Origin: Methylorubrum extorquens
GTDB taxonomy: Bacteria > Pseudomonadota > Alphaproteobacteria > Rhizobiales > Beijerinckiaceae
Assembly (NCBI GenBank): GCA_900234795.1
Contig: LT962688.1
Coordinates: 2,670,001-2,702,000 of the forward strand
Length of the DNA stretch: 32,000 nt
Direction of reading: 5' to 3'
This document shows, one piece after another, positions 17,549 to 28,843 of this stretch; the stretch's first letter is position 1, and each line of letters starts with the position of its first letter. The notes beneath the pieces were generated by a model. That model was not told the origin of the DNA and made no database searches. It was given only the letters and a program-made list of their open reading frames with translations. The position numbers were made by a program, and so were the translations under genes.

Positions 17549-19417
17549 TCAGGCGGTGGTGTCGAGGAGCTGCGAGACCCGCGCCGCGAGTTCGGCGGAG
17601 GCGAAGGGCTTCGTCATCACCGGCAGATCCTCGGGGATCTGCACGGCCTCCGCATGACCGGTCAGCAGAAGGACCGGCACGCCGGAGAAACGCTCGCGGA
17701 TCGCGGCGGCGAGCTCGACCCCGGTCATACCGGGCATGGCGAGGTCGGCCACCACGAGGTCGAAGCGCTCGCCCTTCTCCATCAAATCCAAAGCCGTGTG
17801 CCCGTCCGCGGCCTCGGTTTCGCTGTAGCCGAAATCGCTGAGGAAGGAGGCGGTGACGTGCCTCACCTCCTCGTCGTCGTCGACCACGAGGATGCGGGCC
17901 GGACTGGCCGCCGTCACCACCACCGGGGTCGCCGGCTCTTCGATGCCGTGGGCGGCGCTCTCGGCGCGCGGGAGCGCGAGTTCGATCCGCGTGCCCTGAC
18001 CGACTTCGCTGGTGATGCGCAGCCGCCCGCCCGCCTGCTGGGCGAGGCCGAACACCATGGCAAGGCCGAGGCCGGTGCCCTGCCCGACCGCCTTGGTGGT
18101 GAAGAACGGTTCGCAGACCCGTTCCAGAATTTCCGGCGGGATGCCGGTGCCCTCGTCGGCGACCGAGACGACCGCGTAGGTGCCGGGCTTAAGATCGGGA
18201 TCGTCGGAGATCTCGGCGCGGCGGGTCGAGATGGTGACGGTGCCGCCGTCGGGCATCGCGTCGCGGGCGTTGATGCAGAGGTTGAGCACCGCGAGTTCGA
18301 GCTGGTCGGGATCGACCAGGGCGAAGGGCATGTCGGGCTCGAGATCCCGCACGACGCTGACATGGCTGCCGAGGCTGGAGCCGAACAGCGCGCTCATCCC
18401 CTCGATCAGCGCGTTCGGGTCCACGGGCCGCGCATGGGCGTCGTTGGAGCGGCTGAAGCTCAAGAGCCGCTTGGTCAGCGCCGAACCGCGTTGCGCGGCG
18501 CCGGTGGCGTTGTCCACGAGGCGCTTGACCCGGGGCTGGTCGGCGATCTTGGGGCCGACGAGTTCGAGGCTGCCGAGGATCGCGGTGAGCAGGTTGTTGA
18601 AGTCGTGGGCGATGCCGCCGGCCAGCGTGCCGAGCGCCTGCATCTTGTCGGATTGGCGCAGCCGCGCCTCCAGGCTCTTCTGCTCGGTCACGTCCCGCTC
18701 GATCGTGGCGAGATGCGTGACCTCGCCGGCGCCGCCGCGGATCGGCACCCGGATGACGTGCGACCAGCGCTCGGCGCCGAGCGCGCCGCGGGCGATCACC
18801 GTCGAGCCCGCTTCCCCGGCCGCGACCGCACGGCGGTCGGCGGCCTCCGCCTCGTGGGCCTGAGGCGTATCGGCGATCTCGACCTCGGTGCGGCCGAGGC
18901 AGGCCTCGACCGTGCCGCCGACGAGGCTCGCCTTGCGCGCGTTCAGGCGCACGAAGCGGCCCGACGCGTCCTTGAAGGAGATTGCCTCCTCGGCGTGATC
19001 CAAGAGGCCGCGCAGCAGGGCCCGTTCGGTGGCGAGATCGCGGCCGAGGCGGTGGCGCTCATAGGCGTTGCGCACCGTGGCGCGCAGCAGCGTCGGGTCC
19101 CAGGGCTTGGCGACGTAGCCGATGATGCCGCCGCGATTGAGCGCCGCGATCACCGCCGAGATGTCGGCGTAGCCGGTGAGCAGGATGGCCTGCGCCTCGT
19201 GGAAGCTGCGCGCCTCGGCCAGCAGCGCGTCGCCGGTCATGCCGGGCATGCGCTGGTCGGAGACGACGACCGCGATGTCCGGGTCGGCGCGGAGGATGTC
19301 GAGCGCCTCTTCGGGCTTGGCCGAGGTGAGCACCCGGTACTCGTCCTCGAACAGGTCCTCCAGAGCGATCAGGATGTCCGGCTCGTCATCGACGGCCAGA
19401 ATCGTGCCTTTGCTCAT
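17549..19417 (-). CDS. Hybrid sensor kinase REC-PAS-HisKA-HATPase-REC (622 aa)
   Basis: N-terminal REC (ILAVDDEPD..., VVVSDQRMPGMTG, AKPWD). PAS-like region (LLDHAEEAISFKD...THLATIERDVTEQK). H-box GGIAHDFNNLL, N-box LNLCINARDAM, G1 DEGTGI, G2 GQGTGLGLAMV. C-terminal REC (ILVVDDDEE..., LVVADLAMPGMTG, TKPF). Its start overlaps the upstream stop by 4 nt. Confidence 0.9.
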   Translation of the reverse strand: MSKGTILAVDDEPDILIALEDLFEDEYRVLTSAKPEEALDILRADPDIAVVVSDQRMPGMTGDALLAEARSFHEAQAILLTGYADISAVIAALNRGGIIGYVAKPWDPTLLRATVRNAYERHRLGRDLATERALLRGLLDHAEEAISFKDASGRFVRLNARKASLVGGTVEACLGRTEVEIADTPQAHEAEAADRRAVAAGEAGSTVIARGALGAERWSHVIRVPIRGGAGEVTHLATIERDVTEQKSLEARLRQSDKMQALGTLAGGIAHDFNNLLTAILGSLELVGPKIADQPRVKRLVDNATGAAQRGSALTKRLLSFSRSNDAHARPVDPNALIEGMSALFGSSLGSHVSVVRDLEPDMPFALVDPDQLELAVLNLCINARDAMPDGGTVTISTRRAEISDDPDLKPGTYAVVSVADEGTGIPPEILERVCEPFFTTKAVGQGTGLGLAMVFGLAQQAGGRLRITSEVGQGTRIELALPRAESAAHGIEEPATPVVVTAASPARILVVDDDEEVRHVTASFLSDFGYSETEAADGHTALDLMEKGERFDLVVADLAMPGMTGVELAAAIRERFSGVPVLLLTGHAEAVQIPEDLPVMTKPFASAELAARVSQLLDTTA

Positions 19418-21147
19418 ACCGGTGCCGGTTGCCTCGGAATTCCGATGACGAAGCTCGCGCCGCCGCCCGGCGCCGTCTCGACGATCAGCGAGCCGCTATG
19501 CGCCTGAACGACGCTGTAGGCAATCGCCAAGCCGAGCCCGGTGCCCGATCCGACCGGCTTCGTCGTGAAGAACGGCTCAAAGATCTTTTCGCGTAATTCT
19601 TCGGGAATACCGGGACCGGTGTCGCTGATGCGGATCATATCAGTCTCGGCATCCGAATAGGTCGCCACCGTGATCGTCCCGTCGCCGTGGATTGCATCCG
19701 CTGCATTGCCGAGGATGTTCATGACGACCTGATTCAGCAGGGCGGGCGTGCAGGAAATCTCGGCCCGTCCCGAGAAGTCGCGGGTCACCGTGATTCGGGT
19801 GCCGAGCTTATGCTGGATCAGGGCCAGCACCGTCTCGATCGCTTCCGGCACGTTGACGAGGCCGCGCTCGCCCTCGTCGAGCCGCGAGAACTTCCGCAGA
19901 TTGAGAACGAGATCCTGGATTCGGGTCAGGCCCAGACGCATCGAGCCGACCCGGTCGCGCGCCTTCATCAGCGCCCGCTGTCCCTCCGGCGCGTCGGGCG
20001 GCGGCAAATCACCGAGCAGGCGTTCCACCGTTCCCTGGTGGGCGAGGATGAAGGCGAGCGGGTTGTTGATCTCGTGGGCGATGCCGGCGACCAACTCGCC
20101 GAGCGAGGCCATCTTGGCCGCCTGAACCAGCTTGGCCTGCGCCTCCGTCAGCTTGCGGTTGGCGTCCTCCAGATCCCGGTTGGCCTGTCCGAGGGCGTCG
20201 GCGAGGGCCGCGCGGGCGGCGGCCGCCTCGGCCTCGGCGCGGGCGCGTTCCACCGCCCGCTCGCGGTCGCCGAACTCGCCGGAGATGCGGCGATTGTCCT
20301 CTTCGAGCAGGCGGCGGCGGACGAGGCCGCGCACGCGCATCGCCAGGACCTCGCCGTCGGCCTTCGAGACCACATCGTCGGCGCCCGCGGCGAAGGCAGC
20401 GACCAGAAGGCTCTTGTCCGGCTTGTCGCCGGCCATGCCGACGAGGGGGAAGGCGTTGCCGCCGCCCTCCGGCGCCTTCATGCGGCGCTCGGCGATCTCG
20501 GTGCAGAGCGCGATGCCGTCATAGGCGCTGCCGACGAGGTCGAGGGTCACGCAGTCGAACCCGGCGCCGGGCTCGTCGAGGGCGGCGAGCGCCCCCGAGC
20601 GGTCGGCCGCGGCGACGACGGTGTGGCCTTCCTGGGTCAGCAGGCCGGTGAAGAAGGCGCGGTAAGTGGCGCTGCCGTCGACGATCAGCACCCGGCCGCG
20701 ACGGAACGCGGCGCCGGAGGGCCCCTCCGTCGCGGAACTCTTGCGCTCACGCAGGAGGGCGCGGATGCGCAGCACCAGCAGGTCGCGATCGGCCGATTTC
20801 TCGACATAGGCGTCGGCGCCGCTCTCGAAGCCGTGGCGCTCGCCGTTGCGGGCGCTGGTGAGCATCACCACCGGCAGCGCCCGCGTGCGCAGCGACAGTC
20901 GCATCTGCCGGGTGAACTCGTCGCCGTTCATGCCGGGAAGGTGGTGGTCGGCGACGACGAGATCGGGAAGGTCGGTGTTGAGCAGGTCGAGCGCGGCCTC
21001 GGCCGTGGCGCAGCGCTGCACCGAAAAGCCCTGCCCTTCGAGCTGAAGCCGCAATTCGAGCGCCTGGGTCTCCGAATCCTCGACCAGCAGCAAGCGGTGG
21101 CCGGGTGGGGCGGACGACGCGCCGGAGGGTGATGCGCTCGCGGTCAT
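19414..21147 (-). CDS. Hybrid sensor kinase REC-REC(degenerate)-coiled coil-HisKA-HATPase (577 aa)
   Basis: REC1 has [27 protein letters not shown] and YVEK. REC2 has [22 protein letters not shown] (conserved Thr/Ser lost) and VVSK. H-box [12 protein letters not shown]-box [11 protein letters not shown]1 DTGPGI, G2 [11 protein letters not shown]. There are 4-nt overlaps with cheB upstream and the next kinase downstream. Confidence 0.9.
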
Positions 21148-28331: not shown

Positions 28332-28342
28332 GACCTTTGTCC

Positions 28343-28843
28343 TCAGACGGCTCGCGCCCCCTCGGGCTCGAACCGGGCAAGCCGCGTCGTTGCCTGCCGG
28401 GTCAGCGCGTCGAGACGGGTCCGCTCTTCGAGGGTCAGGATGCGGTCGAGGGCGAGGAGGTGCACGAGTTTGTCGCCCAGCGCGAATTCGCCGACGACGC
28501 AGCCGTTGAGGCTGCGGGCGGATTCGACCGGCCGCAGGGATTCTTCCTCGAGCTGAACGAGATCGAGTGCCCGATCGACGAGAAAGGCGATGCCGCCGCC
28601 GCGGGCCAGCAAGACGTGCCGGTAGGGATCACGACCGCCGCCCGCGTCGCGAAGCGCAAACAGGGCGGCGAGATCGATCACGGGTACCGGCTCGCCGGCC
28701 AGATTGAGAAAGCCCGCGAGCGGACCGCCCGCGGCCGGCGGCGTGTGCAGGCGCGGCAGCGGGAGGATCTCGCGGATCTCGGCCTGCGGCAACGCACAGG
28801 TCGTCCCGGCGATATCGAGCAGTAGGGTGGGCAAACGCGCCAT
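28343..28843 (-). CDS. cheW: CheW-like coupling protein (WspB-like position), first gene of the operon
   Basis: AAGGA sits 6 nt before the ATG at 28841-28843. CheW-like core LLLDIAGTTCALPQAEIREILPLP...LAGFLNLAGEPVPVIDLAALF...FLVDRALDLV. The upstream ORF extension to 28939 was rejected. Confidence 0.8.
   Translation of the reverse strand: MARLPTLLLDIAGTTCALPQAEIREILPLPRLHTPPAAGGPLAGFLNLAGEPVPVIDLAALFALRDAGGGRDPYRHVLLARGGGIAFLVDRALDLVQLEEESLRPVESARSLNGCVVGEFALGDKLVHLLALDRILTLEERTRLDALTRQATTRLARFEPEGARAV

Follow-up and report, generated by a model that had tools for sequence, protein, structure and literature searches.

In Rhodospirillum centenum, the Che3 pathway signals through a kinase that is itself under receiver control. 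The CheA of this pathway, CheA3 (CheA-REC), phosphorylates the first receiver (REC1) of CheS3, a REC-pseudoREC-PAS-kinase protein, and this phosphorylation regulates the CheS3 kinase, whose own substrate is another receiver, CheY3 (PMC3868531). Precisely the Methylobacterium clusters to which the locus studied here corresponds were placed in the ACF type by Muñoz-Martínez et al. (2012), whose Table S2 (PMC3447774) lists the architecture for M. extorquens PA1, DM4 and AM1, M. populi and M. radiotolerans; a 2015 publication noted the same architecture in Komagataeibacter xylinus. A preliminary description of the locus had not recognized this exact architecture as characterized. It is indeed uncharacterized, but it had already been catalogued, and given the 2012 listing and the 2015 mention the module is therefore uncharacterized rather than unknown.

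Organization of the chemosensory operon

In the 32-kb stretch of Methylorubrum extorquens DNA analyzed here (the window), ORF coordinates place eight genes as one packed block on the minus strand from 28843 to 17549, in the order CheW, CheR-TPR, CheW, MCP, CheA-REC, CheB, HK1 (REC-REC-HisKA-HATPase) and HK2 (REC-PAS-HisKA-HATPase-REC). Four-nucleotide overlaps lie at 26880-26883, 22226-22229, 21144-21147 and 19414-19417, and the intergenic gaps are 11 nt, 24 nt and, before mcp, 65-134 nt. These ORF coordinates bear out the positions, overlaps and gaps first reported for the eight same-strand genes, and Pfam agreed with every domain call in that order. Across the eight genes Pfam detected three kinase cores, as had been counted, and six receiver-fold domains; the earlier count of six receivers thus holds for the folds, but only five are conserved as phospho-acceptors. 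The reported lack of outputs was likewise confirmed: among the eight genes Pfam detected neither a single-domain CheY nor CheZ/C/D/X, nor any HTH, GGDEF, EAL or HD-GYP domain, and there are no flagellar or pilus genes anywhere in the window.

The first gene, cheW1 (28343-28843, minus strand; 166 aa; Pfam CheW E=5e-20), encodes a coupling protein and opens the conserved block at every orthologous locus; its ATG at 28843 is preceded by AAGGA, and the mechanical ORF extends to 28939. It is followed by cheR (26880-28331, minus strand; 483 aa; Pfam CheR_N and CheR), which has a C-terminal TPR tail with a TPR_2 match at aa 419-447 (E=7e-5) that lies under the Pfam gathering score; its M. extorquens orthologues are given as CheR-TPR (PMC3447774, Table S2). 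A second coupling protein gene, cheW2 (26326-26883, minus strand; Pfam CheW E=6e-20), overlaps cheR by 4 nt. The mcp gene (24497-26191, minus strand; Pfam HAMP and MCPsignal) lies in an ORF reaching to a TTG at 26260, and its start is likely the ATG at 26191, which yields 564 aa, compared with 557-561 aa for the orthologues. The MCP is laid out as TM1, a helical periplasmic domain of ~180 aa, TM2, HAMP and a 40-heptad signaling domain. It aligned without gaps to the PcaY_PP signaling domain, whereas alignment to Tsr (36H) left two symmetric 14-residue gaps in Tsr, which together indicate the 40H class. In a single-sequence AF2 model (pLDDT 85.5) the N-terminal part of the MCP forms four long helices, and its matches in the PDB were weak, 4HB chemoreceptor ligand-binding domains being among them.

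The cheA-REC hybrid (22226-24472, minus strand) encodes Hpt (aa 6-94), HATPase_c (325-460), CheW (466-599) and REC (630-744) domains, with no P2 domain detected by Pfam; Hpt His42 and the REC residues D634/D635/D680/T710/K732 are invariant in 8 orthologues. The methylesterase gene cheB (21144-22229, minus strand; Pfam N-terminal REC and CheB_methylest) has 4-nt overlaps with both cheA and HK1, and its product scored 328 bits against NCBIfam PRK00742, over the cut-off of 293, and 335 bits against PRK12555, just under the cut-off of 342.

Two further genes flank the operon on the same strand. A ROS/MucR zinc-finger transcription regulator (28982-29470, minus strand; Pfam ROS_MUCR E=8e-44) lies 138 nt upstream and is also found upstream of the M. 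populi operon, but not at the Methylobacterium, Microvirga or Roseomonas loci. A prokaryotic metallothionein of 57-60 aa (17221-17403, minus strand; Pfam Metallothio_Pro E=3e-19) lies ~145 nt downstream of HK2 and occupies the same position in M. populi, but is absent at the loci of other genera. Both genes are context, neighbors in Methylorubrum only and outside the conserved module.

The two terminal kinases

Based on Pfam, 226 orthologues and an AF2 model, HK1 (19414-21147, minus strand; 577 aa) consists of REC1, a pseudo-REC2, a long signaling helix, HisKA and HATPase_c. REC1 (aa 18-132; 20752-21096, minus strand), the proposed acceptor of CheA phosphate, has a catalytic quintet that is invariant in all che-linked copies, and its residues E23/D24/D67/T97/K117, together with His358 and the N and G boxes, are invariant in the 226 orthologues. 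Comparison of the same orthologues showed that REC2 (aa 152-262; 20362-20694, minus strand) is a degenerate pseudo-receiver: residues at position 203 include D (133 orthologues), N (71), A (13) and R (6), those at the K109 equivalent include K (131), A (43) and S (28), and the T87 equivalent is variable. HK1 is thus not the classical hybrid kinase it had been taken for, but a REC-pseudoREC-kinase with REC2 degenerate family-wide. In the AF2 model built with the alignment, the last helix of REC2 (helix 5) and DHp helix 1, on which His358 lies, form a single unbroken helix (aa 265-380).

HK2 (17549-19417, minus strand) was resolved by Pfam into an N-terminal REC (aa 5-120), PAS_4 (134-247), HisKA-HATPase_c (262-485) and a C-terminal REC (509-613). 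Its H-box, AHDFNNLL, is CckA-like, and its best NCBIfam matches were PRK13557 with 405 bits (cut-off 631) and CckA models with 315-336 bits (cut-off 1000); all scores being below cut-off, no equivalog was assigned. His271 and the D/D/D/T/K residues of both receivers do not vary among 8 orthologues. HK2 adjoins HK1 at every full-length HK1 locus seen (~30 loci), with overlaps usually of 1-4 nt.

Conservation of the block and its fate without che genes

Synteny was surveyed in the best 120 matches per protein search and 600 rows of a genome scan, and exceptions may therefore exist beyond these. Among the matches listed, the identical eight-gene order with unrelated flanks was present in over 20 genomes from a number of families, including M. 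frigidaeris, M. populi, M. brachythecii and further Methylobacteriaceae, Microvirga, Roseomonas mucosa, Belnapia, Acidisoma, Komagataeibacter, Gluconacetobacter and Sphingomonas sp. Leaf407, as well as a plasmid of Pseudoroseomonas cervicalis (Roseomonas/Teichococcus). Given this recurrence, the arrangement is far beyond chance. No copy among the loci examined carried an added CheY, Hpt or effector domain. Lack of synteny between the kinases and the che genes had been named beforehand as a finding that would overturn the preliminary description; the results spoke for that description, showing that HK1-HK2 follow cheB, usually with 4-nt overlaps, at every che-linked locus examined in Methylobacteriaceae, Acetobacteraceae and a Sphingomonas, and that a Candidatus Wallbacteria MAG has a CheW-MCP-CheA-HK1-HK2 version without cheB. 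Comparison of these loci shows that the che genes and HK1-HK2 are inherited together as a single block in several families of Alphaproteobacteria.

Some acetic acid bacteria keep only the end of this block. In Gluconobacter, Bombella, Aristophania, Asaia, Kozakia and Acidomonas, HK1-HK2 is kept at one conserved locus with the six che genes missing, and in Ameyamaea cheB still abuts HK1 at this locus. Of the 7 che-less loci examined, 4 have another residue in place of the REC1 phospho-Asp, and further independent replacements, to C, S or G, were seen from sequence alone; no replacement occurred at ~21 che-linked loci or in the 226 HK1 orthologues. The HK1 His box and the HK2 N-terminal receiver are intact throughout the che-less lineages. 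Decay of REC1 alongside an intact His box and HK2 receiver favors transfer from CheA to HK1-REC1 and from HK1 to HK2, and then to an unlinked target. The correlation of REC1 decay with che loss is imperfect, as Asaia and Acidomonas keep the phospho-Asp, and Kozakia a fully canonical REC1, without neighboring che genes; REC1 may therefore have another donor, such as HK2 or an unlinked kinase. In addition, all che-less lineages fall in a single clade, which means that these events are not independent.

A proposed relay through HK1 and HK2

These data point to a complete, self-contained ACF (Wsp/Che3-like) module that does not steer flagella and relays via HK1 and HK2, an overall explanation that we consider likely. 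That the module is of ACF type with HK1 and HK2 as its integral output is highly probable; transfer from CheA to HK1-REC1 is favored on balance, transfer from HK1 to the HK2 N-terminal receiver is evenly poised, and the entire serial chain as written below is tentative, being somewhat less likely than not. All relay steps past CheA are inferred, with comparative support for CheA to HK1 to HK2. MCP ligand occupancy would set CheA autophosphorylation, and CheA~P (His42) would phosphorylate CheB, HK1 REC1 and its own C-terminal receiver, the last of these acting as a phosphate sink as in CheA3. REC1~P would then turn the kinase core of HK1 on or off via the degenerate REC2 and the continuous helix of ~115 residues, and HK1~P (His358) would phosphorylate the HK2 N-terminal receiver, which together with PAS would gate HK2. 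From HK2~P (His271) phosphate would move to its own C-terminal receiver and on to an Hpt-type protein and response regulator encoded elsewhere to give the output; in lineages that have lost the HK2 C-terminal receiver, HK2 would transfer phosphate directly to an unlinked regulator. Such a relay would probably end in gene expression serving a surface, aggregation or stress lifestyle.

The preliminary description had put forward a branched relay as one option. In such a relay, CheA~P would phosphorylate HK1-REC1 and the HK2 N-terminal receiver in parallel, and the two kinases would serve two separate regulators. Both receivers are fully canonical and conserved, and a receiver protein sits beside a hybrid kinase in the Azospirillum lipoferum sister module. 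However, the HK2 receiver stays intact in che-less lineages while HK1-REC1 decays, which suggests that its donor is still there, HK1 being the obvious candidate, and the adjacency of HK1 and HK2 everywhere, even without che genes, points to direct partnership; we regard branching as rather unlikely. The retained phospho-Asp in Kozakia, Asaia and Acidomonas could alternatively reflect reverse or feedback wiring, with PAS-bearing HK2 upstream phosphorylating HK1-REC1 and CheA feeding the HK2 N-terminal receiver or being only a modulator/phosphatase. Myxococcus xanthus Che3 offers a parallel, acting on a separate two-component pair (PMC3147164; PMC3868531) with modulator/phosphatase-type action on CrdA. 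This wiring seems improbable, since REC1 decays repeatedly after che loss although HK2 persists, and the cheB, HK1, HK2 order with translational coupling, together with the CheS3 precedent, favors CheA to HK1.

Survival of HK1-HK2 in acetic acid bacteria that have lost the che genes would also suit an autonomous two-component unit that is only co-transcribed, with the che output elsewhere, for example an unlinked CheY, such as that in another che cluster of the close relative M. extorquens AM1, or protein-protein contacts. This is very improbable given that the che genes and HK1-HK2 keep a constant order in distantly related taxa and on a plasmid, usually with the stop codon of one gene overlapping the start codon of the next, that no other output gene is ever in the block among the loci examined, and that invariance of the REC1 phospho-site is confined to cases in which CheA is present. 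An ordinary flagellar (F-class) system using a CheY encoded elsewhere is scarcely credible, for although Methylobacterium is motile and CheA-REC is also found in the flagellar classes F3 and F5 (and in Tfp), fusion of CheR to a TPR tail is typical of ACF clusters, the MCP is single and dedicated, CheY and flagellar genes were not found in the window, the same module occurs in the typically non-motile Komagataeibacter, and a separate cheA-cheW-cheY-cheB-cheR cluster in M. extorquens AM1 fits the motility role.

Comparison with known systems

The position of the MCP gene between cheW and cheA, first described as a displacement, is not a peculiarity of this locus, as the related module of Azospirillum lipoferum has the same W-R-W-MCP-A-B order; in this sister module the receiver protein and hybrid kinase stand side by side after cheB. 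HK1 resembles CheS3 of R. centenum Che3 in having REC1 and a degenerate REC2 joined to a kinase, the link in HK1 being one long helix, but it has a HisKA core where CheS3 has an HWE core, and it has no PAS domain. CheS3-like proteins were not among the HK1 search matches listed, and HK1 is not a CheS3 orthologue, the parallel being architectural only. The CheR-TPR, two CheW, one 40H MCP, CheA-REC without P2, CheB, multidomain REC outputs and lack of motility genes all uphold the initial assignment to a Wsp/ACF-type module. Together, these data indicate that the region is an uncharacterized, Wsp/Che3-like member of the known ACF class.

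Organization of the eight-gene chemosensory block

The chemosensory block consists of eight same-strand ORFs that run on the minus strand from 28843 to 17549, as the preliminary description had located them, and Pfam searches matched each domain that it had named. The first gene, a cheW (28343-28843; CheW), starts with an ATG at 28843 preceded by AAGGA and is followed by cheR (26880-28331; CheR_N and CheR), a second cheW copy (26326-26883; CheW), an MCP receptor gene (24497-26260, with a probable start at 26191; HAMP and MCPsignal), cheA (22226-24472; Hpt-HATPase_c-CheW-REC), cheB (21144-22229; REC-CheB_methylest) and two kinase genes, designated HK1 (19414-21147; REC-REC-HisKA-HATPase_c) and HK2 (17549-19417; REC-PAS_4-HisKA-HATPase_c-REC). 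These coordinates account for the spacings noted earlier, namely four overlaps of 4 nt and gaps of 11 and 24 nt. CheR carries a weak TPR_2 repeat at aa 419-447 that scores under the gathering threshold, and its orthologues show TPR_2/TPR_16. All six receiver-fold domains in the window retain the equivalents of Asp57 and Lys109. The eight genes yielded no CheY, CheZ/C/D/X, HTH, GGDEF, EAL or HD-GYP domain by Pfam, and the claim that flagellar and pilus genes are missing extends to the rest of the 32-kb window, from which motility genes are absent; two-component genes other than those of the block were likewise not found in the remainder of the window. A consensus-based promoter scan of 16800-30200 returned no sigma-70-like promoter, and terminator-like hairpins in the same interval were at chance level (4 found, 4.7 expected).

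The MCP was assigned to a heptad class, a check that the preliminary description had called for. The alignment of its signalling domain with that of PcaY_PP was essentially gap-free, and the 36H receptor Tsr showed two 14-residue gaps relative to the MCP, placed symmetrically around the hairpin tip; the MCP was thus placed in the 40H class, with a 40-heptad signalling hairpin. A single-sequence AF2 prediction, in which only the best of the five models was confident, gave the N-terminal 232 residues four long helices, the first joined with TM1 and the fourth with TM2. When this sensor model was compared with the PDB, no match was obtained at E<=0.001; the weak matches included the 4HB domains of PcaY, Vc1313 and Tar. 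Since none of the matches was significant, no ligand could be inferred from structure and a guess at one was dropped.

Inheritance of the block in other genomes

Among the matches listed, the closest relatives of HK1 were Methylorubrum proteins, with identities of 96% (an ENA protein), 93% (M. zatmanii) and 92% (M. populi). The eight genes occur in identical order, with the overlaps mostly kept, in M. populi, M. brachythecii and M. frigidaeris, and the complete block was also found in Microvirga thermotolerans, Roseomonas mucosa, Belnapia and Pseudoroseomonas cervicalis, where it sits on a 195-kb plasmid. A genome-collection scan added further copies in at least Methylorubrum suomiense, four more Methylobacterium, two more Microvirga, Acidisoma, Komagataeibacter, Gluconacetobacter and Sphingomonas sp. 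Leaf407, while copies cut by contig ends but consistent with this arrangement were present in Teichococcus, Roseomonas, Microvirga and Magnetospirillum MAGs. A Candidatus Wallbacteria MAG carries the order SBP-CheW-MCP-CheA-HK1-HK2, without cheR and cheB. The preliminary description had proposed synteny of the kinases with the che genes as a check on its reading, and the outcome is in its favour: in the che-linked loci of relatives the kinases do follow the che genes. The flanks vary from genus to genus, so the conserved unit is exactly the eight genes. No copy among the orthologous loci examined contained an extra output gene; the flanks of orthologous and che-less loci (the latter being HK1-HK2 pairs lacking neighbouring che genes) held no Hpt protein, CheY or DNA-binding regulator that might serve as the missing output, and flagellar or type IV pilus genes were absent from the 10-kb flanks of those orthologous loci that have annotated flanking genes.

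On the P. cervicalis plasmid, pL11-C, the module occupies 4349-15580 beside repA and toxin-antitoxin genes. The cheB gene of this copy may be a pseudogene, because the distributed gene table omits it and a tblastn search recovered mainly its C-terminal half in one piece.

Genes adjoining the block in the window

A ROS/MucR zinc-finger regulator gene (28982-29470, minus strand) lies 138 nt upstream of the first cheW. It is similarly placed in M. populi, is missing there from the Methylobacterium, Microvirga and Roseomonas loci, and could regulate the operon locally. GC content is at its lowest in the window in the interval 29000-30000, upstream of this gene (0.61 versus approximately 0.71). At the other end, about 145 nt downstream of HK2, is a gene for a small Cys/His-rich prokaryotic metallothionein of 57-60 aa (17221-17403, minus strand; Pfam PF02069, E=3e-19), the position of which is kept in M. 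populi and absent in other genera. Being neighbours in Methylorubrum only, the MucR and metallothionein genes were ruled out as parts of the module. The metallothionein gene is convergent with a plus-strand gene (15526-17193), itself convergent with the operon, for a 555-aa protein of WD40 beta-propeller repeats and a C-terminal cytochrome c. M. populi lacks this WD40-cytochrome c gene at the corresponding place; there, the metallothionein gene is followed by MobB and MoeA.

The stretch from 7378 to 15652 is rich in molybdenum-cofactor genes, with a molybdate-type ABC transporter (7378-9808), a LysR/PBP_like regulator (9637-10749, plus strand) and three MoeA paralogues (10807-12057, 12594-14570 and 14567-15652), the second of them fused to a PBP_like domain; both the fusion and the triplication look unusual. 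The window also holds opgG/opgH-like glucan genes. A family-2 glycosyltransferase ORF (2681-4654, minus strand) is overlapped on the opposite strand by the ORF of an MdoG/OpgG periplasmic glucan protein (4347-6215, plus strand), whose true start is probably later than called, because its Pfam match begins at residue 135.

META1_1800, a hybrid kinase whose mutation allows M. extorquens AM1 to grow with gadolinium (PMC8969499), was considered for a connection with the cluster and set aside: its cloning primers miss the window even at 3 mismatches and its AM1 neighbours are non-che. AM1, a close relative, has a second che cluster, and its genes META1p1421-1425 (cheA-REC, cheW, cheY, cheB and cheR), which are 8- to 20-fold up in a gadolinium-evolved strain (PMC8969499 supplement), are probably a motility system unrelated to the cluster in the window.

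Conserved phospho-sites and the second receiver of HK1

Across 226 HK1 orthologues, the REC1 residues E23, D24, D67, T97 and K117, the His box (His358) and the N and G boxes are invariant. The second receiver is different: 133 of the same orthologues carry D at position 203, 71 carry N, 13 carry A and 6 carry R, and its Lys and Thr equivalents are likewise variable. Judged from this alignment, REC2 is a degenerate pseudo-receiver across the family. In the AF2 model of HK1 (alignment A2), the last helix of REC2 runs unbroken (aa 265-380) into DHp helix 1, and because of this continuity REC2 is predicted to be a rigid coupler joining REC1 to the kinase core. The Hpt His42 of CheA, the CheA receiver, both HK2 receivers and His271 of HK2 were invariant in 8 orthologues with 49-88% identity.

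Neither CheA nor HK2 could be given a more specific name with NCBIfam. CheA obtained generic CheA matches only, under their cut-offs. HK2 was tried as CckA and rejected, as it fell far under the cut-offs for CckA (315-336 bits, where 1000 is required) and for all other named kinases (PRK13557, 405 bits, where 631 is required); a CckA-like H-box and the C-terminal receiver are all that HK2 and CckA have in common. In a search of 50% representatives, full-length REC-REC-kinase relatives dropped away fast under approximately 40% identity. A REC-REC-kinase encoded on a Niveispirillum plasmid and 37.7% identical to HK1 was discarded as a paralogue, lying amid two-component genes with no adjoining che cluster.

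HK1-HK2 pairs that lack che genes

In a subclade of the acetic acid bacteria, HK1-HK2 stands alone at one conserved locus with no che genes within 10 kb. Such che-less loci were found in Gluconobacter (two species), Bombella, Aristophania, Asaia, Kozakia and Acidomonas, flanked by an FtsEX-like ABC transporter and DUF218 upstream and by HslVU, SufE and PQQ dehydrogenase genes downstream. In Ameyamaea the downstream genes are those of the che-less locus, yet the C-terminus of cheB still overlaps HK1; given this remaining cheB end, the che genes appear to have been deleted in the subclade.

The first receiver of HK1 is altered in several of these lineages. Its phospho-Asp is replaced by Cys in Gluconobacter, Aristophania and Bombella, and in Bombella the Lys is gone too and Pfam fails to detect the domain. 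From sequence alone, the residue is Ser in Neokomagataea and Gly in Neoasaia, and it is lost in Oecophyllibacter; the replacements by C, S and G are independent in several che-less lineages. Kozakia, also che-less, keeps the phospho-Asp in a fully canonical REC1; Asaia and Acidomonas keep it as well, with an altered acidic pocket. Counted by locus, the residue is replaced at 4 of the 7 che-less loci versus none of the approximately 21 che-linked loci, a raw locus count without phylogenetic correction in which the che-less loci are one clade; it is replaced in none of the 226 HK1 orthologues. Throughout the che-less lineages the His box of HK1 and the N-terminal receiver of HK2 are intact. The C-terminal receiver of HK2 is missing, and thus dispensable, in Acidisoma (488 aa) and Bombella (499 aa). 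We read these sequences to mean that REC1 came under relaxed constraint after the loss of CheA, and that the link from HK1 to the HK2 receiver persists.

A proposed kinase cascade and its alternatives

The component list, inheritance as one block and the conserved phospho-sites are established, and we count with them the predicted pseudo-receiver of HK1 and its modelled helix geometry. On this basis we propose a serial relay from CheA through HK1 and HK2 to an unlinked target, the likeliest of the wirings considered although rather doubtful when taken whole. The MCP would set CheA activity, and CheA~P would pass phosphate to CheB, to its own receiver, which would serve as a sink as demonstrated for CheA3, and to REC1 of HK1. 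REC1~P would then switch HK1 by way of REC2 and the long helix, and HK1~P would phosphorylate the N-terminal receiver of HK2, which would add a PAS input and deliver phosphate through its C-terminal receiver to an Hpt protein and a response regulator encoded elsewhere. The specific predicted transfers are those from CheA His42 to HK1 Asp67 and from HK1 His358 to HK2 Asp54. In the most novel form of this reading, which is rather improbable, the module would be a three-tier histidine-kinase cascade from CheA to HK1 to HK2 that ends in an unlinked phosphorelay, and HK1-HK2 would be an autonomous, evolutionarily separable relay. The pair would be attached to a chemoreceptor array in Methylobacteriaceae and many Acetobacteraceae and would run array-free in Gluconobacter, Asaia and Bombella, where the now-useless receiver facing CheA would decay.

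The che-less pattern supports, though it does not prove, transfer from CheA to HK1-REC1 and from HK1 to HK2. Parallel branching from CheA is less likely, and reversed or feedback wiring less likely still; the Kozakia and Asaia cases are compatible with a different donor to REC1. It is unlikely that the kinase pair is autonomous and merely co-transcribed with the che genes, a view that can point to the pairs standing alone in acetic acid bacteria and has to account for a REC1 phospho-Asp that is kept at the che-linked loci. Ordinary flagellar chemotaxis is very unlikely: CheR is fused to TPR, there is one dedicated MCP and no CheY, Komagataeibacter carries the module, and M. extorquens AM1 has a separate cheA-cheW-cheY-cheB-cheR cluster. 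If the three-tier cascade is true, three sensor-type kinases would act in series, each receiver-gated, which would be longer than any characterised chemosensory relay, and the pathway would have three points of signal integration, namely the MCP ligand, the PAS domain of HK2 and the receiver sinks.

Comparison with known systems

The assignment of the module to the alternative-cellular-function (ACF) class of chemosensory pathways (as classified by Wuichet and Zhulin 2010), made in the preliminary description, holds by domain content and gene neighbourhood, as seen in its multidomain receiver outputs, its CheR-TPR and its lack of motility linkage. Multidomain receiver outputs instead of, or besides, a single-domain CheY are a criterion of this class (PMC3447774); HK1 and HK2 are multidomain, and neither the cluster nor the window has a CheY. 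CheR-TPR, which has a strong ACF association, is represented here by the sub-threshold TPR_2 match and is listed for the M. extorquens orthologues by Muñoz-Martínez et al. 2012 (PMC3447774). The presence of a CheA-REC does not by itself identify the class, since F3, F5 and Tfp have it as well.

The architecture, which the first reading had not recognised as characterised, turns out to have been catalogued: this very cluster is in the inventory of Muñoz-Martínez et al. 2012, in which approximately 40% of the response regulators in CheR-TPR clusters have a kinase module (PMC3447774). That work is a bioinformatic inventory, without wiring, conservation analysis, the pseudo-receiver or the che-less pairs. 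Orthologous genes are H845_2129-2136 of Komagataeibacter xylinus E25, in the order cheW, cheR, cheW, MCP, cheA, cheB, 'histidine kinase response regulator' and 'PAS/PAC hybrid histidine kinase', which Augimeri and Strap 2015 (PMC4686702) bring up in an introduction only, as a speculative candidate for ethylene sensing. Our literature search found no functional studies of the cluster in Methylobacterium. The module is thus an uncharacterised member of a known, catalogued kind and not a new architecture. What is new is the breadth of its conservation, which takes in a plasmid copy as well as a relative outside the proteobacteria, the identification of HK1-REC2 as a pseudo-receiver that is modelled as joined to the kinase through a continuous helix, and the che-less HK1-HK2 pairs with decaying REC1, which yield testable wiring predictions and serve as natural controls. 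ACF chemosensory pathways are common and very few have a known wiring or output. The carriers of the module include phyllosphere methylotrophs (Methylobacterium and Methylorubrum), cellulose-producing Komagataeibacter, nitrogen-fixing Gluconacetobacter and the skin commensal and opportunist Roseomonas mucosa, and because it is conserved in such organisms one characterisation would annotate hundreds of genomes.

Wsp is an ACF-class surface-sensing pathway. The core of the P. aeruginosa system (WspA-F, WspR) is present in the module as MCP, CheW, CheR-TPR, CheW, CheA-REC and CheB, with no CheY. The Wsp output, however, is the REC-GGDEF protein WspR, and GGDEF is absent from the eight proteins of the module and from its neighbours; by its domain content, therefore, the module is not Wsp. 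The MCP gene comes first in Wsp and lies between the second cheW and cheA here. The preliminary description had remarked that the MCP has moved; its position is no peculiarity, as an uncharacterised module on the Azospirillum lipoferum 4B plasmid AZO_p2 has an identical core order, cheW-cheR(TPR)-cheW-mcp-cheA(REC)-cheB. The CheA of that module is 38% identical over its full length, and only receiver and kinase genes, with no effector domain, follow the core, the output slot being filled by a 255-aa receiver protein and a sensor-HisKA-HATPase-REC hybrid kinase. The 255-aa protein, encoded after cheB (13368-14135 of locus L089), is annotated as a 'response regulator transcription factor'. It has one canonical REC (aa 118-230) after a degenerate receiver-like half, and the annotation looks wrong because Pfam finds no HTH or other DNA-binding domain in it.

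The Che3 system of Myxococcus xanthus with CrdS/CrdA is likewise an ACF system without CheY; it works on a separate histidine-kinase pathway by which development is controlled (PMC3147164). Its output is an NtrC-type transcription factor encoded with the system, whereas the module has no DNA-binding regulator.

The Che3 pathway of Rhodospirillum centenum, a cyst-development pathway, is the direct precedent from experiment. There CheA3, a CheA-REC, phosphorylates REC1 of CheS3 (REC-pseudoREC-PAS-HWE kinase), and CheY3 is phosphorylated by CheS3, not by CheA3 (He et al. 2013, PMC3868531). Both systems are eight-gene ACF clusters with one MCP, two CheW, CheR, CheB and CheA-REC, and in both the second kinase opens with two receiver-fold domains, a functional one and then a pseudo-receiver. 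The kinase CheS3 combines a PAS domain with an HWE-type core, whereas HK1 lacks PAS and has a HisKA core (PF00512). No CheS3-like protein was among the matches listed for HK1 homologues, CheS3 being compared by its described architecture, and on these sequence features HK1 does not appear to be a CheS3 orthologue; nor is the cyst function of Che3 transferable to the module. The third component also differs, as a stand-alone CheY3 acts in Che3 and no single-domain receiver gene was found in the cluster or any orthologous locus; its place here would be taken by a receiver of the third kinase, HK2, as an added tier. The module probably works like Che3, and, if confirmed, the proposed wiring would make the CheA3-CheS3 paradigm of R. 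centenum apply far more widely and give it one more kinase tier.
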